DNA from: a virus
Taxonomy: Duplodnaviria > Caudoviricetes
Reading direction: 5' to 3' (one strand)
Length of the DNA stretch: 64,000 bases
IMG/VR virus record: IMGVR_UViG_3300020577_009873
Location: 4,638 to 68,637 of that record
The notes below the pieces were generated by a model. The model made no database searches. It saw only the letters and a program-made list of their open reading frames with translations, and was not told the origin of the DNA. The position numbers were made by a program, and so were the translations under genes. This document shows, one piece after another, positions 19,384 through 56,926 of this stretch (position 1 is its first letter; every line of letters begins with the position of its first letter).

Positions 19384-21591
19384 TTATAATTTTTCCATAA
19401 ATACTGAATCCTCGCTCTTAAATAAATAGTTCTGGTAAGCATCTTCTGCTAAAAAGGAACACATTGGAGCCAGAGCCTTCATAAATCTTTCTAAAGCAAA
19501 TTTCATTACATATTGACATCTTTGTCTTTCAGGTGAGTGTAAATCATATTCATATAAATAAGATTTTGTAGGAACGTCTAAATATTGACTAGAGAATTCG
19601 GTCACCCAAGCCATAAGTTCCTCAAAAACCTTTCTGAAATTCATTTCAGAGTAATTATTTTTAACTCTACTATACATCAACTCACATCTTTCAAGTGCGA
19701 GCAGTTCTTTTTCACCCATTTCACACTGTAAATTGTCAAATCCATACATATTTCCAAGTAAATATTTTAACGTATTTCTGAACTTAAAGTAATATTCACC
19801 ACAACTTTTCAAAACATTTTCACCTAACTGAACATCATCAGCATATGTAACAACAGATGCCCATAATCTCATAACATCACTATTGTGTTTTAATTGCATT
19901 TCTTTAGGATCTACTACATTACCAACTGATTTTGCCATTTTTCTACCGTTTCCATCTAATACAAATCCATGTGATACTAGCTTTTTATATGGTGATTTAC
20001 CGTTCATGGCAACAGATGTTAGCAAAGATGATTGAAACCACCCACGAGTTTGATCTGAACCTTCAAAGTAAACATCAGACTGACCACCAACAACTGAATA
20101 CCAACTAACACCAGAATCAAACCATACATCTAAAGTATGTTCGCATTTAACTAGGCCAAGTCCTTGAAATTCAGTTGGTAATAAATCTTCCTCTGTTCTA
20201 TCAAACCACACATTTGAGCCATGATTTTTGAATAGTGTAACTAAGTGCTTTTCCAAATCTTTATTTAGAAATGGCTTACCATCTTTCATAAAAACTGCCA
20301 ACGGAAATCCCCATTTTCTTTGTCTTGATAAGCACCACCTGTCTCTCGATTTTAGTGTACTTGTTAATCTATTTTTCCATCTTTCTTCTGAAAAGGTAAC
20401 ATCATTCAAAGCAAGTAAAGCTTTTTCTTTTAGTTCAGACAAATTCAAAAAGAACTGCTCAGTCAATTTAAAGTAAACAGGTCCTCCTGTTCTCCAATCA
20501 TGTGGGTAGGAATGTTCATAATATTCAGATTTAAATAGCATATCACCCATTTGAGATACAACCCACTCTGATCCAGCATCTAAGCAAAATAGACCATTTG
20601 ATAATTTACCAGCAGGATCAGTTAAGTCTAATCCGGTTAATCCATTCTTTTTGCATACCTCAAAATCATCCTCACCATGTGCGGGACAAAGATGAACTAA
20701 TCCGGTTCCACTATCTAATTTTACAAATTTATCACAAACTACGAAACCACCACTTCCAAGTTTGTTGCTATATTTTAATCCTTTAAGTGATTTTCCCTTA
20801 TATTTATTAACAACTTCACCATTTAAAAGATGCATTCTTGATTCTGCAACAACATAGGTTTTATCTCCTAATTTTACATCAACATAGTCTCCACTTTTAT
20901 TAACACATACAGCAACATTACCCAATACTGTCCATGGTTGTGTTGTCCATAAAAATAGCTTTCTTCCATCTTCTAAATCAAATGTAAAATAAGCAGATAG
21001 ATCTTTCCTGTTCTTATATTCTAATTCAGCTTCAGCTAATACGGTTCTTGATGATGGTGAGTAGTAAACAGGTCTGCTATCAAGATATAATAAGGAACTA
21101 TTTAGAAAATTATATAATACTTCTAATTGTTTATATTCATAGTTTTTATCCATTGTTAAATAAGGATTATCCCATTCTGCTAAAACCCCAAATGATTTAA
21201 ATGTTTCGTTTTGTTTTTCAGAATATGTTTGTGCCCATTCCTCACATTTATTTCTAAGTTCGGTAGTATTTAATCTACCATATTTTTTTTGTACGGCTAA
21301 TTCGGTTGGTAATCCATGACAATCAGATCCAGGCCTAAATCTCACTTTATCACCCTTCATAAGATGATACTTAACTGTCATGTCTTTTAGTACTTTATTT
21401 AAAAGGTGACCAACATGCACATCACCATTTGCATATGGTGGACCATCATGTAATGTAAAAAGTTCACCTTCATTTCTTTCGTTTCTATTTTTGAGAACAT
21501 CTTTCCATAATTTTAAAAGTTCAGGTTCTCTTTGTTGTGAATTCGATCTTTGTGTGAATTCTGTTTTCGGCATATTTAATGTCTTACTCAT
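19384..21591 (-). CDS. ileS: isoleucyl-tRNA synthetase, C-terminally shortened
   Basis: LHDGPPYANG, HVGH, WTTQPWT, WCLSRQRKWG, EGSDQTRGWF, KMAKS; start MSKTLNMPK lies downstream of the terminator. Confidence 0.95.
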   Translation of the reverse strand: MSKTLNMPKTEFTQRSNSQQREPELLKLWKDVLKNRNERNEGELFTLHDGPPYANGDVHVGHLLNKVLKDMTVKYHLMKGDKVRFRPGSDCHGLPTELAVQKKYGRLNTTELRNKCEEWAQTYSEKQNETFKSFGVLAEWDNPYLTMDKNYEYKQLEVLYNFLNSSLLYLDSRPVYYSPSSRTVLAEAELEYKNRKDLSAYFTFDLEDGRKLFLWTTQPWTVLGNVAVCVNKSGDYVDVKLGDKTYVVAESRMHLLNGEVVNKYKGKSLKGLKYSNKLGSGGFVVCDKFVKLDSGTGLVHLCPAHGEDDFEVCKKNGLTGLDLTDPAGKLSNGLFCLDAGSEWVVSQMGDMLFKSEYYEHSYPHDWRTGGPVYFKLTEQFFLNLSELKEKALLALNDVTFSEERWKNRLTSTLKSRDRWCLSRQRKWGFPLAVFMKDGKPFLNKDLEKHLVTLFKNHGSNVWFDRTEEDLLPTEFQGLGLVKCEHTLDVWFDSGVSWYSVVGGQSDVYFEGSDQTRGWFQSSLLTSVAMNGKSPYKKLVSHGFVLDGNGRKMAKSVGNVVDPKEMQLKHNSDVMRLWASVVTYADDVQLGENVLKSCGEYYFKFRNTLKYLLGNMYGFDNLQCEMGEKELLALERCELMYSRVKNNYSEMNFRKVFEELMAWVTEFSSQYLDVPTKSYLYEYDLHSPERQRCQYVMKFALERFMKALAPMCSFLAEDAYQNYLFKSEDSVFMEKL

Positions 21592-21617: not shown

Positions 21618-21648
21618 AAAAAAACCCCAAGAAAAATTCCTTGGGGTT
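21618..21648 (-). terminator. ileS attenuator terminator
   Basis: minus strand AACCCCAAG-GAATTTTT-CTTGGGGTT followed by T-tract. Confidence 0.9.
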
Positions 21649-21670
21649 CAATTTTGATAATAGTTATCCA

Positions 21671-21736
21671 TTATCCAATTGGCTTTAGCCAAGGAATCGT
21701 ATAATGAATAATTATAATATTTTTGTGATTAAACAT
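21671..21736 (-). CDS. Ile leader peptide MFNHKNIIIIHYTIPWLKPIG
   Basis: four tandem Ile codons; ATTCCTTGG complementary to terminator arm CCAAGGAAT. Confidence 0.9.
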   Translation of the reverse strand: MFNHKNIIIIHYTIPWLKPIG

Positions 21737-21769
21737 AATGTTTATAGTTTTTTTATCTTTATTGTTTTA

Positions 21770-21777
21770 CAAATATA
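21770..21777 (-). promoter_or_regulatory. Bacteroidota -7 promoter box for the Ile leader
   Basis: TATATTTG on the minus strand. Confidence 0.65.
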
Positions 21778-22788: not shown

Positions 22789-22818
22789 ATATTATATATT
22801 AATATATAATATTCTAAA

Positions 22819-23361
22819 ATGAAATATATTAAAACATATGAAGACCATGAAGATTTACTTAATTCACTTAAAAAATTAAGTGATCAAATGAGTAGATTAA
22901 AAATCTTAACAAAGATGGATATTCGTCATAAAACTCCGAAAGAGATATATGAAGATTTCTTCTTAGAATTTAAAGAATCAGAAGGATTCAAAATAGAGAT
23001 TCACGGACGTAGCAACAACGGCATAGGTCCTATAAGCGTTGACTTATATAATATGATCGATAAAGATATTATAGAATCTGAATTTTATAGATATGTTGAT
23101 AAATTGAAGTCAATTAAAAGTAGGTTAGAAAATTATATGAATTTTGATTGTCATTTTACGATATCATTAAATGGTAAAGAACAAAATGTACAAGTAGGAT
23201 ATGACCGAAGAAATGATGAATTTAAATTTTCAGGACTAGGTGATAAAAAAAGCGGATATGATGGAAATGGACAATATTATACAAATATCAATGGTATCGC
23301 TGGATCTAAAAATTTTCCAGATGATAAAGTTTCTATGATAATAAAATTTTATATCATTTAA
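22819..23361 (+). CDS. hypothetical protein with N-terminal MKYIKTYE tag
   Basis: AATATATA upstream. Confidence 0.75.
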   Translation: MKYIKTYEDHEDLLNSLKKLSDQMSRLKILTKMDIRHKTPKEIYEDFFLEFKESEGFKIEIHGRSNNGIGPISVDLYNMIDKDIIESEFYRYVDKLKSIKSRLENYMNFDCHFTISLNGKEQNVQVGYDRRNDEFKFSGLGDKKSGYDGNGQYYTNINGIAGSKNFPDDKVSMIIKFYII

Positions 23362-24200
23362 ATTTTCTCACCCTTTGTCTCATCATAGTATCTCCATGTA
23401 AATCCTTTAACAATTATAAATTTTCCATTTTTCTTATTTAATTTTCTCCTGCAACAAGAAATTAAATTAGATTTACCAATATCATTGTTAGATGATGCTT
23501 CTCTAATAGAATCATATATTTGTAGTAATCTACCATTCAAATCATATTTACAAACTTTTCTACTATTAGCCTGTATATTTTTGTTATATGGGACATAATC
23601 AAATTTGTCTCCCTTGTATCTAAATGTTGTTGATGTTATATCATCTTCCTTTCTCCAAAAATGTTTACCACCAACAGTATAGTATGATTTTTTTTTACAA
23701 CACAATGATATTAGATATATATGATTTCCTGATTTTCTACTAGCATCTATCAAAGATTCATATTCATTTAAAATATTTCCATTTAGGTCATATTCTATAA
23801 CAGGAGTCATATATTTATATTTGGAATCATGTATTTTCTTTTTTGATGAATCTTTATGTTTTCTGCCATTCCAGTCAACACCAAATTCACCACCTTCGCT
23901 AAGGTTTGTTAGTCGAAATCCATCATCTTTAAATTTCCTAACCCAATATATTTCTAATTCATTTACATTTGATGAATCACATTCCTGAATAATGTTCATT
24001 ATTGGTTTTTCTCCAACTTTCAAAAGTGATTTTATCCAATTAGATTTATGTGTATTTTTATCATATTTTTCTAGATAACACTTTTGTAAATGCCGTTTAT
24101 ATCTATTTTTTGGATTATTAGTTTTCCCAATATATCTAACTTCATTGGTAATTGGATCTGAAAGTGAATAAATAAATTGTTTCTTTAATATTTTTTCCAT
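23358..24200 (-). mobile_element. GIY-YIG homing endonuclease with NUMOD1 repeats
   Basis: FIYSL...RYIGKT; two YDLNG...Y.S..EAS modules. Confidence 0.85.
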
Positions 24201-24256: not shown

Positions 24257-25876
24257 ATGAAATACATTAAAAAACGAAATAGTTTCTTAAAAGAAAGTAA
24301 GACTATGAAAGATGATGCTCTACACATCTTGGCAACACATGATGACAACCAATCCTCTGATATTAAAGAGGTTTTAGATGACCTAGATAAAACAAAAGTT
24401 TCCTCTAGGGTTATTACCAGGTTTGCCCCTTCTCCAACTGGAAAACTTCACATTGGGGGAATACGCACTGCATTATATAACTATCTATTTGCTAAAAAGC
24501 ACAATGGTATATTTTATGTTCGTATAGAAGATACTGATCAAAAAAGATTCGACTCTGAAGCAGAAGATTATATTAAGAACGCGTTAGAATGGGTTGGTAT
24601 TGAAACAGATTGGGATCCATGGAAGGGGGGTCCAAATGGTCCTTATCGCCAATCCGAAAGGGATTATACTGGACACATCAAAACTCTATTGGATGCTGGT
24701 CATGCTTATTATGCTTTTGATACTGAACAAGATTTAAATTTAGTAAGAAAGGATAATCAAAACTTTGCCTATGATGTAAAGTCAAGAATGAATATGAAAA
24801 ACTCTCTTTCTTTATCAAAAGAAGAAGTTGATAAATTACTTGAAAATAAAGCACCATATGTAATTAGATTTAAGGTTCCTGAAAACAAAACTATTAAATT
24901 TACTGATATCGTTAGAGGTGATGTTTCTTTTAATAGTGCTCAAGTTGATGATAAGGTATTAGTTAAATCAAATGGTATTCCTACTTATCATATGGCATCC
25001 GTATGTGATGATCATGATATGGGAACAACACACGTTATTAGAGGTGAAGAGTGGCTACCGTCTGCCCCATTACATGTCATGTTATATGAAGCATTTGGTT
25101 GGGATGCCCCGCAATTTGCTCACTTACCTTCAATTCTTAAGCCAGATGGTAAAGGAAAACTTTCAAAAAGGGATGGACTCAAATTAGGTATTCCAGTATT
25201 TCCATTTGGTGGAGAGGGAGTAGATGATAAAGGAAATACCGTTAAATATAAAGGATTTAAAGACGAAGGATTTGAACCAGACGCACTTGTAAACTTCTTA
25301 TTGTTATTAGGATGGGCACCAAGTGATGGTAAAGAAATTTATAATTTAGCTGAAATGATTTCTGACTTCTCTCTTGATAGAGTTCATAAAGCAGGAGCTA
25401 GATTTGATATGGATAAAGCAAAGTGGTTTAATAGTGGATATCTTCAAAATAAATCAGATGCTGAATTATTAAGTCATATTGATATGGGTAACACCTATAA
25501 ATATGATGATGATAAATTATCAATGATTGTTGATTTGTGTAAAAAGAGAAGCACTTTTAAAACTGATATGCAGGTTGTTGCTGATATCTTCTTTAAACCA
25601 GTAATTCTTGGAGAAAAGGAATTAAAAAGCTTATCAGAAGACTATAAAAAAGTTTTTGTAGACTTTGTTGAAAAAGCATCATCAATTGATTGGGAAATGG
25701 AAAAGGTTAAACAATTAATTTTTGATATCTGTGCAGAAAAAGGAATTAAAATGGGTAAAGTAATGCCGTCATTAAGAATGTCTGTTACGGGTGGTGTCCC
25801 AGGACCAGATTTAATGACCACAATGTTTATTTTAGGAAAAGAAGAAAGCCTAAAAAGAATTAAAAATTCTTTATAA
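24257..25876 (+). CDS. gltX: glutamyl-tRNA synthetase with ~50-aa N-terminal extension
   Basis: TRFAPSPTG, HIGG, RIEDTD, YRQSER, HVIRGEEW, KLSKR. Confidence 0.95.
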   Translation: MKYIKKRNSFLKESKTMKDDALHILATHDDNQSSDIKEVLDDLDKTKVSSRVITRFAPSPTGKLHIGGIRTALYNYLFAKKHNGIFYVRIEDTDQKRFDSEAEDYIKNALEWVGIETDWDPWKGGPNGPYRQSERDYTGHIKTLLDAGHAYYAFDTEQDLNLVRKDNQNFAYDVKSRMNMKNSLSLSKEEVDKLLENKAPYVIRFKVPENKTIKFTDIVRGDVSFNSAQVDDKVLVKSNGIPTYHMASVCDDHDMGTTHVIRGEEWLPSAPLHVMLYEAFGWDAPQFAHLPSILKPDGKGKLSKRDGLKLGIPVFPFGGEGVDDKGNTVKYKGFKDEGFEPDALVNFLLLLGWAPSDGKEIYNLAEMISDFSLDRVHKAGARFDMDKAKWFNSGYLQNKSDAELLSHIDMGNTYKYDDDKLSMIVDLCKKRSTFKTDMQVVADIFFKPVILGEKELKSLSEDYKKVFVDFVEKASSIDWEMEKVKQLIFDICAEKGIKMGKVMPSLRMSVTGGVPGPDLMTTMFILGKEESLKRIKNSL

Positions 25877-25887
25877 AAAATAGGATA

Positions 25888-26229
25888 ATGATGAATATTA
25901 GAAAATTTAATGAAATGGATACATTCAATATTACATTCTCTTCTAAAGAAGAATTTATAAAATTTTGGAGTGATAGATGGAAAGGAACTAATGCGGAAAA
26001 GTTTCCAAAAGAATTTATAGAAACTTTTGAGACACAATTTGATTATTCGGAATGGGAAAAAGAAAATTATAATTATGGAAGCGAATTTGATGCGGATAGT
26101 GAGATCGAAAATATTGACTCTGAATTTGGAATTGCAATAGGAGACGACGAAGACTGTGATATATCCTCTGATGAGTGGGTTGATTTTTATAACAGTTGTT
26201 GGACATGGTTAAAAAATAATAAAAAATAA
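25888..26229 (+). CDS. acidic hypothetical protein with N-terminal MNIRKFNE tag
   Basis: ORF with shared N-terminal motif. Confidence 0.75.
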   Translation: MMNIRKFNEMDTFNITFSSKEEFIKFWSDRWKGTNAEKFPKEFIETFETQFDYSEWEKENYNYGSEFDADSEIENIDSEFGIAIGDDEDCDISSDEWVDFYNSCWTWLKNNKK

Positions 26230-27023
26230 TGAAATATTTAGAAAGTTATGATGGGTATGGTGAACTTAACGTCGTTTGTGATGAATCTTGTTACTCATTA
26301 GCGAGCACATACCTAAATAAGTTAGATAAAAAATCAACTATATCTAGTAAAGAAGGTAATTCATCTGTTATATCTGCGATTAAAACTCTTATATCAAAAG
26401 GATCTAACAATATTTTAGTTATATTAGATGATAGGGGAGAATTAAAAGATCAAATGGATGAAAGACTTGATTTTTTAAGAGGTTTTATGGGTGAGCGGGA
26501 TTATAAAAAACTCGATGTAAAAATGGTATCTGAATTAAAGATAAGTGAGAGTAAATTATATGAAGAAGCAACATTTAAAAAGTCAGATTTTAATATTTAT
26601 AAAATCAGAGTTTATGCTGATGGTATTGATGTTGTTAAAAGTAAATTTGATGGAGATCCAATTCAACATAATGAAAGAGCTAAGGAATATGTAGACTTTT
26701 TTGGAAAAATGGTTGAAAAAGTAACTGGACAATCAATGAGATATTATTATAACAAATATATGTTCTTTGCAAAAGAATCGGTTGTTGAGTTGTTAAAGGC
26801 TGATTATGATATTCGAGTAGTAGAAGGAGAAGAATATAATTGGTGGTTTGTACCTAAAGAAAATAAAGAAGTATCAGATTGGATAGAAAAAAATTGCAAA
26901 CTACCATTCAGAAAAGCTTTAAGAAGTCCTAATTTCGCTTCTTTAGATAGTGATAGTAGTGATTATTGGAGAAAAAAGGCTGAAGAACTTACAAAGGATT
27001 ATAAAATGAAAAATAATTTATAG
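26229..27023 (+). CDS. hypothetical protein
   Basis: ORF starting MKYLESYD. Confidence 0.75.
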   Translation: MKYLESYDGYGELNVVCDESCYSLASTYLNKLDKKSTISSKEGNSSVISAIKTLISKGSNNILVILDDRGELKDQMDERLDFLRGFMGERDYKKLDVKMVSELKISESKLYEEATFKKSDFNIYKIRVYADGIDVVKSKFDGDPIQHNERAKEYVDFFGKMVEKVTGQSMRYYYNKYMFFAKESVVELLKADYDIRVVEGEEYNWWFVPKENKEVSDWIEKNCKLPFRKALRSPNFASLDSDSSDYWRKKAEELTKDYKMKNNL

Positions 27024-27197
27024 GAAGAAGTAAAACATTCAAAAAAAATTCACCCAAAAGCTTTTAAGGAGTGAGGAAAAAGAGTTAAGATTAGATTTAA
27101 ACTTAATATGGCATGTTTATGAGGATGAGATTACTGATGCAGAAAATTTTTCGGTAATAACAAGATGGTAAAAATAAACTATTTATAAAAAATTTCG

Positions 27198-27205
27198 TAT
27201 ATTTG
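27198..27205 (+). promoter_or_regulatory. Bacteroidota -7 promoter box for the Val leader
   Basis: CG-TATATTTG-T, 4 nt before the leader ATG. Confidence 0.75.
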
Positions 27206-27209
27206 TAAT

Positions 27210-27263
27210 ATGAATATCAATTTAAATATCGTCGTGGTATCAACATCTGTCCGATGTTGGTAA
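27210..27263 (+). CDS. Val leader peptide MNINLNIVVVSTSVRCW
   Basis: GTC GTG GTA tandem plus GTC; GATGTTGG pairs with CAACATC (27241) or with terminator arm CCAACATC. Confidence 0.9.
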   Translation: MNINLNIVVVSTSVRCW

Positions 27264-27284
27264 TTTTTACGCCTAAAATTATAC

Positions 27285-27318
27285 AAACCCCAACATCAAA
27301 AAATGTTGGGGTTTTTTT
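27285..27318 (+). terminator. valS attenuator terminator
   Basis: AAACCCCAACAT-loop-ATGTTGGGGTTT followed by TTTT. Confidence 0.9.
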
Positions 27319-27379
27319 ATTTCAAAAAATAAAAAAACCACCACTGACTAATAGTGGAAATTAAAAAATTAATATATAA

Positions 27380-28192
27380 ATGAAAAAAATAGAAATGATA
27401 ATTTACGGACTATTCTCCTCAGAGTCACCATCTGATATTAGATATATTGGAAAGGCAACCAATATTAAAGACAGACTAAGAAGACATCTATCAAAGTATA
27501 GTTTGAAGAACGATACATATAAAAACAGATGGATAAAATCTGAAATAAATAAAGGAAATAAAATAGAAATTGCAATCATAGAAGAGGTTAGTGAAAGCAA
27601 TTGGGAAAAAGCAGAAATTTTTTGGATATCCGAATTTAGAAAACTAGGGTATAACTTAACAAATTCGACTATTGGTGGAGATGGAATAGTTCCAACGAAT
27701 GAAATTATAAATAAAAGGGGTAAAACCAAAATTACAAACAATTTAAAAAATAAATCGGAATTAATTGAAAAGTTCAATATAAGAGAAATAAATAACATGT
27801 GGGTTGGTGAGAGGGTCTGCCCAAAATGTGGTAAAATAATCAGATATGAATTATCAAATATTAATAAACTAATATCTCTTTGTAAAAAATCTATTGATAG
27901 GAAATGTTTATCTTGTAGTAGTACAGACAAAACACCATTTAGAAATCATAAGTGGTCTACAAAAGGAATGAAATATAAAACCAATAACAGCAAATTAATT
28001 AGAGAAAAATATGGTAAAAAAATACAACAATTTGATAAAGATGGAAATTTAATTGATGAATTTAATTCCATTAGAGAAGCAAATTCAATTACAAAAATTG
28101 ATAGAAAAAGTATATCACAATGTATTAAAGGAACCAGAATAACAGCTGGAGGATACATTTTCAAACAAAAAATGAATAATTATGAAAAATAA
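27380..28192 (+). mobile_element. GIY-YIG homing endonuclease with NUMOD1
   Basis: IIYGL...RYIGKA, NLTNSTIGGDG, FNSIREA...TAGGYIF. Confidence 0.85.
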
Positions 28193-29525
28193 ATTTTTAA
28201 TAGATACTCCCCCACCAACAATTAGCGGAAGTCAAGGACTTCATATCGGACATATATTTTCCTATACACAAGGTGATTTAATTGCAAAATATAAAAGATT
28301 TATTGGCAATGATATTATCTACCCGTTTGGGATAGACAATAATGGCATACCTACCCAAAAAAGCGCATCTAACAAGGGAATAAAAGGAACGAAAGAAATA
28401 ATTGACTTCTCACTTAAAAGGGGAGAAGATTACAAATCAACATTTAAAATGTGCGGCATTACTTTTGAAAATGGACAAGATTATCATACCTATAATAATC
28501 TTTCACTAGATATTTGCTATCAAGCATTTGAAATTTTAAAGAAAAAGGGAATTGCCTATAAGGCAAACACAGAATATCTGTGGTCTGAAAAATTAAAAAC
28601 TTCTATTTCACAATCTGAATTAAATGAAGAAGGATTGATTGAAAGAACTGGAGAAACTCCAATTATTAAAAGTGGTGAGGGGTGGTTTATTAATTTAAAA
28701 GATCATTTGCCACAGATAAAAGAAATGATAGATAAAATAGAATGGAAACCAATTAAATTCAAGAAAAGAATTGATGATTGGATTGAAAATATAAAATGGG
28801 ATTGGTCAATCTCAAGAGAAAGAAATTTTGGAATTCAAATTCCTGGTGAAGAAACATTTACCTTTGATACTTGGTTCATTTCATCACTATCTCCGCAAAT
28901 TGCTTGGTCGTCATATAAAGGATATAATGATATGCTGAATTGTCCAATATTTGATATGAGATTTCAATCACATGATATTATTAGAACTTGGGCATTTTAT
29001 ACAATTGCTATGTCCTATTTTATTAATGGTCAAATTCCTTGGAAAACAATTATGATAACAGGTCATACTTTAGATGGAAATGGGGATAAATTTAGTAAAT
29101 CAAGTGGTAATGCAACTCCGCCAAAGCCATTAATTGATAAGTATGGTATATCAGGAATTAGATATTGGGCTTTTTCTAGTACGTTAGGAACCGATACTAA
29201 GATTGATGAGAATAAGATGAAAATAGGCTGGAGAATTATTAATAAATTAAAAAATGCTGAAAAGTTTATTAATATGCAAATAGAAAATAATTGGATTGGT
29301 GAGAAAGAGGAGTATTATTCTAAGTGGTTAGAACAAAAGAATATGATATTTGAATATTTAGAAGAATATGAAATTGATAAAGCAAATGGTGCTTTATATG
29401 AATTTTTCTGGGACACATTTTGTTCTACTTGGATTGAGGAGTCTAAAAAAGAATCAATATCATTAACATTAATTAAAATACTTAATGAAATAAAAGGTAT
29501 TATAAATTTCATTTATATAAAATAA
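28182..29525 (+). CDS. valS: minimal valyl-tRNA synthetase
   Basis: DTPPPTISG, HIGH, DWSISRER, FDTWF, DIIRTW, KFSKS; Val leader upstream. Confidence 0.85.
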   Translation: MKNKFLIDTPPPTISGSQGLHIGHIFSYTQGDLIAKYKRFIGNDIIYPFGIDNNGIPTQKSASNKGIKGTKEIIDFSLKRGEDYKSTFKMCGITFENGQDYHTYNNLSLDICYQAFEILKKKGIAYKANTEYLWSEKLKTSISQSELNEEGLIERTGETPIIKSGEGWFINLKDHLPQIKEMIDKIEWKPIKFKKRIDDWIENIKWDWSISRERNFGIQIPGEETFTFDTWFISSLSPQIAWSSYKGYNDMLNCPIFDMRFQSHDIIRTWAFYTIAMSYFINGQIPWKTIMITGHTLDGNGDKFSKSSGNATPPKPLIDKYGISGIRYWAFSSTLGTDTKIDENKMKIGWRIINKLKNAEKFINMQIENNWIGEKEEYYSKWLEQKNMIFEYLEEYEIDKANGALYEFFWDTFCSTWIEESKKESISLTLIKILNEIKGIINFIYIK

Positions 29526-38900: not shown

Positions 38901-38955
38901 TTTTTATATAGATTTTTTTTATATATTAATTTTTACTATCTTTGATTAGTTAATT

Positions 38956-53538: not shown

Positions 53539-53570
53539 TTTGGTGGGTAGAAAAGTTCGCCGTATCTTTG
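53539..53570 (+). promoter_or_regulatory. Bacteroidota sigma-A promoter for the His/Phe/Trp module
   Basis: TTTG-N20-TATCTTTG. Confidence 0.8.
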
Positions 53571-53597: not shown

Positions 53598-53693
53598 ATG
53601 TCATACGTTAGTAAACATAAACATTTTAGCAAATTCCATTTTTGGTTTAGTACCAAGAGTTCGGGAGCTAATATTGTTTTGCCTAATGTGTAA
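53598..53693 (+). CDS. His/Phe/Trp leader peptide MSYVSKHKHFSKFHFWFSTKSSGANIVLPNV
   Basis: 3 His, 4 Phe and 1 Trp within codons 7-17; GAGTTCGGG pairs with terminator arm CCTGAACTC. Confidence 0.88.
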   Translation: MSYVSKHKHFSKFHFWFSTKSSGANIVLPNV

Positions 53694-53716: not shown

Positions 53717-53747
53717 AAACCTGAACTCGAAAAGTTCAGGTTTTTTT
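53717..53747 (+). terminator. His/Phe/Trp attenuator terminator
   Basis: AAACCTGAACT-CGAAA-AGTTCAGGTTT followed by TTTT. Confidence 0.9.
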
Positions 53748-53767: not shown

Positions 53768-54391
53768 ATGAGAGAAATTAAAGAAAATACGTACAAGGGA
53801 ACAAGAATTCTATTAGGAAATGAAAAAAGAGATTTAATTAATAGAATGATAGATGTTCTAAAAGATAGAGGATATATGGAAATTCAAATTCCAATTATTC
53901 AAAATCTAGAAACCTTTAGAAATAAGGTAGGTGATGAAAATAGAAATATGATGTTTTTATTTTCTGATAGAGGAAATAGAGAATTGTGTTTGGCTCCTGA
54001 ATATACCGCGGTAATTCAGTCATTGAGTGATACATTCAAATATAGTAAAGATGTTAAATTGTTCTATGTTCAAGAATGTTTCAGAGGTGAAAGACCACAA
54101 GCAGGTAGATACAGACAGTTTACACAATTAGGTGTAGAGATAATTAATCCAAGTATGGATTATGTTGAAGAACTTTCTTCATTAGCACTCGAACTAGTGT
54201 CAAATGGTAATGTTGATAGATTCAAAGTAGATATGAGTGTTACAAGAGGATTAGATTATTATAAAGATGGAAAAGGATTTGAAATATCCTGTGATGAATT
54301 AGGAGCTCAAAAACAAGTGTGTGGTGGGGGTGAATATGATGGTGGAATTGGGTTCGCGATTGGAATTGATAGAATATTGTTGATTAATTAA
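53768..54391 (+). CDS. hisS: minimal histidyl-tRNA synthetase (catalytic domain only)
   Basis: KGTR, LAPEYTA, FRGERPQAGRYRQFTQLGVE, RGLDYY, GGGEYD, GFAIGIDRI. Confidence 0.88.
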   Translation: MREIKENTYKGTRILLGNEKRDLINRMIDVLKDRGYMEIQIPIIQNLETFRNKVGDENRNMMFLFSDRGNRELCLAPEYTAVIQSLSDTFKYSKDVKLFYVQECFRGERPQAGRYRQFTQLGVEIINPSMDYVEELSSLALELVSNGNVDRFKVDMSVTRGLDYYKDGKGFEISCDELGAQKQVCGGGEYDGGIGFAIGIDRILLIN

Positions 54392-54395
54392 ATAT

Positions 54396-54483
54396 GGTGG
54401 TATTAGTGTCAGCGGTGAGTCTGAAAAGACGAGCACGATACTCTGTGAAAGTATTAGCACCGGTTCAAATCCGGTATATCACC
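54396..54483 (+). tRNA. tRNA-His(GTG) with D-loop hairpin insertion
   Basis: G-1/C73; ATACT-CTGTGAA-AGTAT; T-loop TTCAAAT. Confidence 0.85.
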
Positions 54484-54488
54484 CAAAA

Positions 54489-54811: not shown

Positions 54812-54818
54812 CAAACAT

Positions 54819-54900
54819 ACATCCGCTCATAAGCGTGACCAGCCGGTTCCAACCCGGTAATGCGTAAGCGTGGTTAAGAGTTCGAATCTCTTCGGGTGTT
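54819..54900 (+). tRNA. atypical tRNA(CCA) with reduced D-arm and long variable arm
   Basis: ACATCCG/CGGGTGT; GCCGG-TTCCAAC-CCGGT; AAGAG-TTCGAAT-CTCTT. Confidence 0.7.
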
Positions 54901-54908
54901 CAAAACAT

Positions 54909-56911: not shown

Positions 56912-56926
56912 TTTAATATATAATGG

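Follow-up and report, generated by a model that had tools for sequence, protein, structure and literature searches.

We analyzed a 64-kb stretch of phage DNA (64,000 nucleotides; hereafter the window) that forms part of the 68.6-kb viral record IMGVR_UViG_3300020577_009873 (Duplodnaviria; Caudoviricetes), a record judged to be 13% complete. The window harbors valS, a gene for a short valyl-tRNA synthetase (ValRS), and upstream of it a small leader open reading frame (ORF) with a run of valine codons that is followed by an intrinsic terminator; an inserted GIY-YIG gene lies between this leader region and valS. The G+C content of the window is 30%, and its nearest named relative is LR745206.1, a 634,780-bp genome named 'uncultured phage', with which valS shares 72.8% DNA identity and ValRS 67.3% protein identity. 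Huge-phage genomes of more than 634 kb are predicted in PMC7162821 to infect Bacteroidetes, and we take LR745206.1 to be one of these. Five synthetase-like genes are found in the window (for IleRS, GluRS, ValRS, a HisRS-like fragment and TrpRS) together with 13 tRNA genes. LR745206.1 carries 59 tRNA genes according to ARAGORN, including Val(GAC), Val(TAC), Ile(GAT), two copies of Ile(TAT), five Leu and two Phe, and so brings tRNAs as well as synthetases for all four amino acids with leaders described below.

The valS product scores best among the NCBIfam synthetase types with valine--tRNA ligase NF009687 (331.5 bits, compared to 167.1 bits for the ileS type), and the best solved chain is the ValRS structure 1gax; the phage protein has 447 residues versus 862. 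The LHIGH and KFSKS motifs can be read in its translation. The CP1 part of the profile is unmatched (Pfam 22-244, then NCBIfam 458-662), which indicates that the editing domain is absent, and the LeuRS-like (422 residues) and MetRS-like (457 residues) genes of LR745206.1 are equally short. Its activity and specificity are predicted properties, and an editing-free ValRS raises the question of mischarging with Thr. Six ValRS loci were compared: those of the window, L007, L001 (LR745206.1), L008, L013 and L012. Two further loci, L010 and L011, duplicate L007 and L008, and L009 (22% identity, from the metagenome scan for valS loci) was not used.

Table 1 Features of the valS leader region, the synthetase-like genes and related motifs in the window.
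Feature	Positions	Strand	Remarks
-7 box TATATTTG, likely leader promoter	27198-27205	+	Bacteroidetes-type TAnnTTTG; same box before the L001, L008 and L013 leaders
Leader ORF MNINLNIVVVSTSVRCW	27210-27263	+	17 codons plus TAA; homologous leaders in L001, L008 and L013
Regulatory Val codons GTC GTG GTA	27231-27239	+	fourth Val codon, GTC, at 27249-27251
Segment 1 TATCAACATC	27238-27247	+	5' arm of the anti-antiterminator hairpin
Segment 2 GATGTTGGTA	27253-27262	+	partner of segment 1 or segment 3
Segment 3, core CCCCAACAT	27285-27296	+	5' arm of the terminator
Segment 4	27303-27318	+	3' arm of the terminator plus seven-T run (27312-27318)
838-bp insertion with GIY-YIG gene	27324-28161	+	flanks abut exactly in L007 (2980/2981)
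AATATATA motif in the insertion	27371-27378	+	within TTAATATATAA (27369-27379)
GIY-YIG/NUMOD1 homing-endonuclease-like gene	27380-28192	+	270 aa
valS	28182-29525	+	short ValRS, 447 aa; no editing domain, no valine
Ile device before ileS	21622-21777	-	box 21777-21770; leader MFNHKNIIIIHYTIPWLKPIG with stop codon 21736-21671; terminator 21649-21622
ileS	19384-21591	-	IleRS, 735 aa, no isoleucine; TIGR00392 666.2 bits (cut-off 621.4)
gltX (GluRS)	24257-25876		
HisRS-like fragment	53768-54391	+	
TrpRS gene	from ~55039		directly after tRNA-Trp
Further AATATATA / TTAATATATAA motif sites	e.g. 22792-22809, 38919-38929, 56913-56923		

The first-pass annotation of the locus had proposed a Val attenuator with complete 1:2, 2:3 and 3:4 helices, and every element that it named is found where it had placed them. 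The leader ATG, at 27210, lies 4 nt beyond the -7 box, and the 17 codons of the leader peptide specify the run VVV and one further Val. The two predicted pairing arms, CAACATC (27241-27247) and GATGTTG (27253-27259), lie within a 10-bp helix 1:2 of -10.2 kcal/mol, and the leader stop codon TAA (27261-27263) overlaps the 3' end of segment 2. The alternative partner of segment 2, CCAACATC, is located at 27290-27297 in the terminator, and helix 2:3 formed with it comprises 8 bp. The terminator, 3:4, spans 27285-27314 and has a 12-bp stem of -16.6 kcal/mol that is followed by TTTTTTT, ending at 27318. When the region 27205-27320 is folded as a whole, it adopts hairpin 1:2 and the 12-bp terminator with a minimum free energy of -30.3 kcal/mol (z = -4.08), and none of 200 shuffled sequences was as stable. 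The codons GTC and GTG provide three of the four leader Val codons in the window compared to 13% of the Val codons in its long ORFs, and 12 of 17 leader Val codons over four leader versions compared to 10-13% of the long-ORF Val codons (13% in the window, 10% in LR745206.1); this excess may be forced in part by the pairing.

We also folded the leader transcripts under a ribosome mask, in which the ribosome was assumed, from known footprints, to cover 12 nt past the first base of its A-site codon and the RNA was truncated before segment 4. With this reach, a ribosome whose A site is on Val codon 9 or 10 masks segment 1. Stalling on the Val codons leaves the 2:3 antiterminator in all four distinct leader versions (-8.8 to -12.8 kcal/mol), and in the window the 8-bp helix then has an energy of -11.3 kcal/mol. 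A ribosome located at the stop codon leaves no competitor to the terminator (0 to -1.3 kcal/mol, again in four of four versions), while the free full-length RNA folds into 1:2 plus the terminator.

These features make it very probable, in our view, that expression of the phage valS gene is controlled by transcription attenuation of the ribosome-mediated, leader-peptide type, with the supply of Val-tRNA(Val) as the signal. From the arrangement we infer the transcript start, a coupling between ribosome and polymerase, a kinetic order of folding and a response to valine, as follows. Transcription would proceed from the -7 box, in the window copy probably beginning with the A of the leader ATG or a neighboring base, and the 17-codon leader would be translated by a ribosome while the polymerase moves on. 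When charged tRNA-Val is plentiful, the ribosome would reach the stop codon within segment 2 and mask this segment, so that the 3:4 terminator could form and transcription would end at 27312-27318. When charged tRNA-Val is short, the ribosome would stall at GTC GTG GTA and cover segment 1, leaving segment 2 to pair with segment 3 before segment 4 exists, and the absence of a terminator would allow read-through. An RNA without a ribosome would form 1:2 and be terminated.

Comparison with related phages that lack the endonuclease, which the first-pass annotation had put forward as a check, revealed the same device 24-26 nt before valS in four of them. The -7 box, the leader and the helices 1:2, 2:3 and 3:4 are all present in five of the six ValRS loci (window, L007, L001, L008 and L013), and no leader was found before the ValRS gene of L012, a G+C-richer 488-kb phage whose ValRS is 45% identical. 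The ValRS of L007 is 99% identical to that of the window and is preceded by an identical leader and no endonuclease gene; the ValRS proteins of L008 and L013 show 69% and 73% identity, respectively. The homologous leaders are MKTINLNNLVVVNVSV in L001, MKFNQNIVVVNVSV in L008 and MKSIFALNTVIVTTRV in L013, and in all four distinct versions the -7 box is located between the upstream gene and the leader. The Val codons have been changed synonymously, from GTC GTG GTA in the window to GTG GTT GTC in L001 and L008, which argues that they are read as codons. The pairing segments co-vary as well. Segments 1-4 read CAACATC, GATGTTGG, CCAACATC and ATGTTGGGG in the window and CAACGTATC, GATATGTTGG, CCGACATATC and ATATGTCGGG in L008; L001 and L008 share a 2-nt expansion in each of segments 1, 2, 3 and 4; and L013 has a third segment set, in which a different terminator stem is accompanied by a matching segment 2. 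Helices 1:2 and 2:3 are thereby maintained through coordinated changes in L001, L008 and L013, and the terminator is present in four of four versions. As a MAFFT alignment of the four leaders broke the helices, each version was analyzed by its own folding. What lies beyond chance is the conjunction of these elements and their conservation and not any single feature.

An independent line of evidence comes from the composition of the synthetases themselves. ValRS contains no Val in its 442-447 residues at all five leader-bearing loci, compared to a median of 5.4-5.6% Val in long ORFs, and valS has no in-frame GTN codon versus 17 and 18 in the other two frames; the ValRS of L012, whose gene has no leader, contains 19 Val. 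Similarly, IleRS has no Ile in 735-737 residues at three of three loci (median 8.5-8.7%), with no in-frame ATH codon in ileS versus 68 and 87 out of frame. The purge extends to a PheS-related protein (no Phe in 359 residues), a MetRS-like protein (no Met in 457) and the HisRS-like fragment (no His in 207, as in 10 of 16 relatives). TrpRS lacks Trp in its 247 residues, although the rarity of Trp makes this weak evidence. The LeuRS-like protein retains 18 Leu (4.3%), the fifth lowest content among 311 ORFs, and GluRS is not depleted, with 31 Glu in 539 residues. Among the best 120 database homologues of ValRS (identity 47-100%; contigs as large as 770 kb), 75 are free of Val and the Val-rich proteins concentrate at the low-identity end; among the best 120 homologues of IleRS, 65 are free of Ile and 91 have at most three, and the last 16 are long proteins, several of them named as cyanobacterial, with 35-78 Ile. 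This purge argues that expression of these genes is intended for times when charged tRNA of the cognate kind is scarce, and it fits exactly what the attenuators would arrange. A ValRS without valine would be translatable under the very shortage that turns valS on, so that Val leader and Val-free enzyme together would form a feedback loop on charging. Separately, the MetRS-like ORF (L001 7133-8506 in LR745206.1, plus strand) contains no Met codon; the one start listed for it is a GTG, and its conserved N-terminus is encoded upstream of this codon.

Cognate leaders are not confined to valS. Terminators were sought on either strand throughout the window and the complete LR745206.1 record, and of the 222 found we kept those with an ATG-initiated ORF of 6-45 codons that ends at most 80 nt upstream and contains a run of at least three identical residues, and with an ORF of at least 100 aa that starts at most 200 nt past the terminator. 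The scan returned 12 rows, 11 of them distinct, and six of these precede a synthetase gene for the amino acid of the run: Val and Ile, each in the window and in LR745206.1, as well as Leu and Phe. In the remaining five rows, with runs of N, S, K (twice) and L, the short ORF pairs with the terminator arm only weakly, at -4.2 to -7.6 kcal/mol; family assignment covered the genes behind the six cognate rows. Ile leaders with IIII also stand before ileS in L015, L016 and L187, the last of which was located by a DNA pattern derived from the Ile leader itself. The Leu leader, MINNNVNILLLPLT (LR745206.1 position 404566), precedes the LeuRS-like gene (L061 14831-16099, plus strand); this row was picked up through its NNN run, and LLL is present in it as well. 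The Phe leader, MNTNTTFNFFFSHKMV (LR745206.1 position 615030, minus strand), precedes the PheS-related gene (L072 9318-10397, minus strand), which belongs to the NCBIfam 'PheS-related mystery ligase SrmL' (423.4 bits, cut-off 300), and hints that this ligase deals with Phe. The Ile, Leu and Phe leaders follow the same folding logic in the stalled, stop-codon and ribosome-free states, with the exception of the window ileS leader, whose truncated free RNA folds as the antiterminator. No leader was found before the GluRS genes (window 24257; LR745206.1 395798), the MetRS-like gene, the TrpRS gene or a class II gene at 367 kb. Among the 80 best bacterial IleRS loci (32-43% identity), none of which is titled Bacteroidota, three have a short upstream ORF containing III; in this set, in which Bacteroidota were not sampled, there was no sign of a leader arriving with a cellular gene.

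A third leader-like element of the window, on the plus strand, consists of the box TATCTTTG at 53563-53570, the ORF MSYVSKHKHFSKFHFWFSTKSSGANIVLPNV at 53598-53693 and a terminator at 53717-53743, and it precedes the His-free HisRS-like fragment, which is followed by a tRNA cluster. No other terminator of the window has an upstream-to-arm duplex as strong as the one found here (-11.3 kcal/mol). Of the 16 residues that follow Met, 15 belong to the set Ser, Tyr, Lys, His, Phe and Trp, for all of which tRNAs are encoded downstream. This His/Phe-rich leader is shared by the window with its twin L017, and 15 other relatives lack it. In five records of other giant phages reached via the HisRS-like gene, class-Ia genes are present in three, and the four ORFs read there (with LeuRS- or MetRS-like N-termini) have no leader.

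Several observations weigh against an attenuator that gates valS in the window. The 2:3 duplex taken alone is unremarkable, as its -8.5 kcal/mol is equaled or beaten at 27 of the 222 terminators of the window and LR745206.1, and TATATTTG is not over-represented in the window (15 occurrences versus 12.07 +/- 3.28 expected). Only four distinct Val leaders are available, of which three have the VVV run and that of L013 has V-I-V. The terminator wins at equilibrium in every masked fold of the full leader, and antitermination therefore depends on the assumed order of synthesis, as it does in classical cases; in L001, moreover, the truncated ribosome-free RNA already favors 2:3. The NF009687 score of ValRS lies below the curated cut-off of 738, which we attribute to the missing editing domain. 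In the window, valS is now separated from the switch by an insertion, which itself contributes a possible promoter. Finally, an ATG only 4 nt past the box requires leaderless translation, which is plausible. In LR745206.1, the spacing between TAnnTTTG and the ATG peaks at 4-5 nt for ORFs with 60 aa or more (20 and 14 of 240, with ~0-11 in the other bins), and several of these genes read TATATTTGTAATATG, as at the Val leader; a leaderless start at 27210, as the first-pass annotation had favored, would fit the habits of the clade. The 4-nt spacing is not a conserved feature, however, since it occurs in the version shared by the window and L007 and in L013 while the spacing is 13 nt in L008 and 16 nt in L001; in the Ile, Leu and Phe leaders the box is 22-37 nt away. 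Twenty-four public runs, among them four metatranscriptomes, were considered. The four runs examined are available as contigs, and in two of them one contig covers 26200-29552; such contigs say nothing on start, stop, strand or level.

The insertion between attenuator and gene is resolved to the base by the 99%-identical L007 locus, in which the terminator TATTTC begins 26 nt before the valS ATG. Exactly 838 bp have been added in the window, 5 nt past the T run, and no native base has been lost; the leader and the terminator are intact, with identity to L007 extending to the terminator loop. The inserted ORF overlaps the valS start by 11 nt, as had been noted before, and its last nine codons and stop codon are native valS upstream sequence. 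Its domains, PF01541 (32.3 bits, cut-off 22.6) and NUMOD1 PF07453 (32.2 bits, cut-off 22.8), together with its presence and absence in near-identical genomes, mark it as a putative homing endonuclease gene. Because the insertion lies between the T run and valS, a read-through RNA would carry the endonuclease gene first and valS second, and judged from this position the former would be co-induced with read-through. Free-standing GIY-YIG homing endonuclease genes between phage genes are well known, for example the seg genes of T4, which the present gene resembles in its GIY-YIG and NUMOD domains, its intergenic location, its presence or absence in near-identical genomes and the overlap of its ORF end with the next gene. 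It differs in its target, a 26-nt spacer between a probable attenuator and its gene. With such a target the element would have placed itself under amino-acid-sensing control. A second GIY-YIG/NUMOD1 gene (23358-24200, minus strand), 30% identical to that beside valS, lies on the opposite strand 56 nt from the gltX start, and in L020 an endonuclease-like ORF end was seen by eye just before the HisRS-like gene; borders of synthetase genes may be favored landing sites of endonuclease genes.

The insertion also gives rise to the most serious alternative, namely that the switch is genuine in the lineage yet mostly circumvented in the window, with valS expressed mainly from AATATATA since the insertion and the attenuator gating little or only topping up. 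The possibility that this motif within the insertion expresses valS independently of the attenuator had been raised at the outset, and the association of the motif with gene starts makes it plausible. In LR745206.1, an ORF of at least 60 aa lies no more than 40 nt from 188 of the 304 AATATATA sites, with distance peaks at 4 nt (52 sites) and 5 nt (29 sites), together 81 sites, and also at 17-25 nt. The window shows an enrichment of the longer form TTAATATATAA, with 39 matches when one mismatch is allowed versus 21.03 +/- 5.28 expected (none of 100 shuffles reaches 39). Taken with the 4-5-nt peak of the -7 box, these patterns suggest many leaderless mRNAs and two promoter classes in the clade. 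The terminator scan gave no plus-strand hit from 27324 to 28182. The copy in question, however, stands 1 nt from the ATG rather than 4-5 nt, an atypical register that makes its function doubtful, and the promoter role of the motif is assigned from position only. As the leader and terminator are also fully intact and ValRS is still free of Val, we consider a bypass of the attenuator possible and its dominance in the window unlikely.

A reading in which the hairpins are sensed by uncharged tRNA, as in a T-box, or by a protein, or in which the terminated leader serves as a small RNA, appears very improbable. It is established that Firmicutes synthetase genes are controlled by tRNA-binding T-box leaders. 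Attenuator-derived small RNAs have likewise been described (PMC6614838). The Val leader region, however, matches neither the T-box model nor any other Rfam family at the gathering threshold, which only tRNAs pass; the ~110 nt from the RNA start to the T run leave no room for a tRNA-binding fold; and the conserved feature is a codon run that is maintained through synonymous change. Matches below the threshold are generic for a hairpin followed by a terminator, such as the trpB motif RF04312 (30.5 bits versus 59) and Thr_leader RF00506 (21.7 versus 55); Phe_leader RF01859 reaches 18.1 bits versus 55 on the other strand, and His_leader RF00514 reaches 25 bits versus 49 at the ileS leader. Hardly credible at all is a reading without any regulation, in which the upstream gene (26229-27023) simply ends in an intrinsic terminator that is joined by chance to a short ORF and a hairpin. 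Although AT-rich DNA abounds in short ORFs, comparable upstream pairing recurs at other terminators as given above and no Rfam family reaches its gathering score, a conserved -7 box separates the upstream gene from the leader in every version, the Val codons survive synonymous change, the four segments change together, Ile, Leu and Phe counterparts stand before the matching synthetase genes, and ValRS is purged of valine.

Regulation by attenuation may be one part of a larger arrangement. We suggest tentatively, at somewhat less than an even chance, that a clade of giant and probably Bacteroidetes-infecting phages carries a self-starting kit for the rescue of tRNA charging, which consists of cognate leaders (Val, Ile, Phe and in part Leu) and cognate-free enzymes. 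Such a kit could be switched on and built when charging of the cognate tRNA has collapsed, whether through starvation, host defense or the phage's own shut-off of host translation, and its leaders would also reveal substrate specificity, for example Phe for SrmL. The reason for tRNA synthetases in giant phages is still debated; in its main text, PMC7162821 offers only the charging of phage tRNAs and mentions no attenuator, leader or riboswitch. The device described here would tell when the enzymes are wanted, namely when the cognate charged tRNA is missing. It would also extend classical attenuation to phages and to Bacteroidetes-type promoters, offer a hint from sequence at the specificity of unassigned ligases, and provide in the absence of cognate residues a rule for finding such genes in metagenomes. 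For the endonuclease gene, it would be a case of a homing element that places itself under amino-acid-sensing control.

The mechanism itself is textbook. The pheST synthetase operon of Escherichia coli is controlled by the pheM attenuator, in which a leader with many cognate codons is combined with a terminator/antiterminator pair, and there as here the sensing of charged tRNA closes a feedback loop on charging. The window device differs in that it is encoded by a phage, reads Val instead of Phe, uses a Bacteroidetes-type -7 box and probably a leaderless start, and would regulate an enzyme in which its own amino acid is completely absent; the two devices are unrelated both in sequence and in Rfam. 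The enterobacterial ilvBN (ivbL) and ilvGMEDA (ilvL) leaders likewise combine Val codons in a short leader with four-segment alternative pairing and an intrinsic terminator, but they precede biosynthetic operons and are multivalent (Val/Leu or Ile/Val/Leu), whereas the phage genomes have one single-amino-acid leader per synthetase gene (Val, Ile, Leu, Phe). The Firmicutes T-box performs the same task, providing more synthetase when the tRNA is uncharged; there the tRNA is read directly by RNA-RNA contact, whereas here a ribosome would read codons, and no T-box match was found. A low cognate amino-acid bias, by which proteins needed in a shortage use little of the scarce amino acid, is reported for biosynthetic enzymes in PMC4209129. 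The bias observed here is total (0/447 and 0/735), concerns phage tRNA synthetases and coincides with a cognate leader on the same gene. In the open literature searched, which did not include subscription journals or the supplements of PMC7162821, we found no leader peptide of a phage synthetase gene and no cognate-free synthetase. Relative to that literature, the attenuation of phage-encoded synthetase genes, a set of single-amino-acid leaders per genome and their coupling to cognate-free enzymes are new.

An alternative genetic code was considered and ruled out, as TAA, TGA and TAG end 241, 47 and 23 long ORFs in LR745206.1, respectively, and the code is standard. Within the tRNA cluster of the window, the stretches 54395-54488 and 54813-54905 (plus strand) have T-arm-like ends, GGTTCAAATCC and GTTCGAATC, and received no tRNA call from ARAGORN or Rfam. 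Upstream of the Val leader, positions 27024-27170 hold what is left of a small gene whose complete form is found in L007 (~2431-2828 there) and of which about the first 250 bp are gone; judged by eye, this sequence appears to be a deletion scar.

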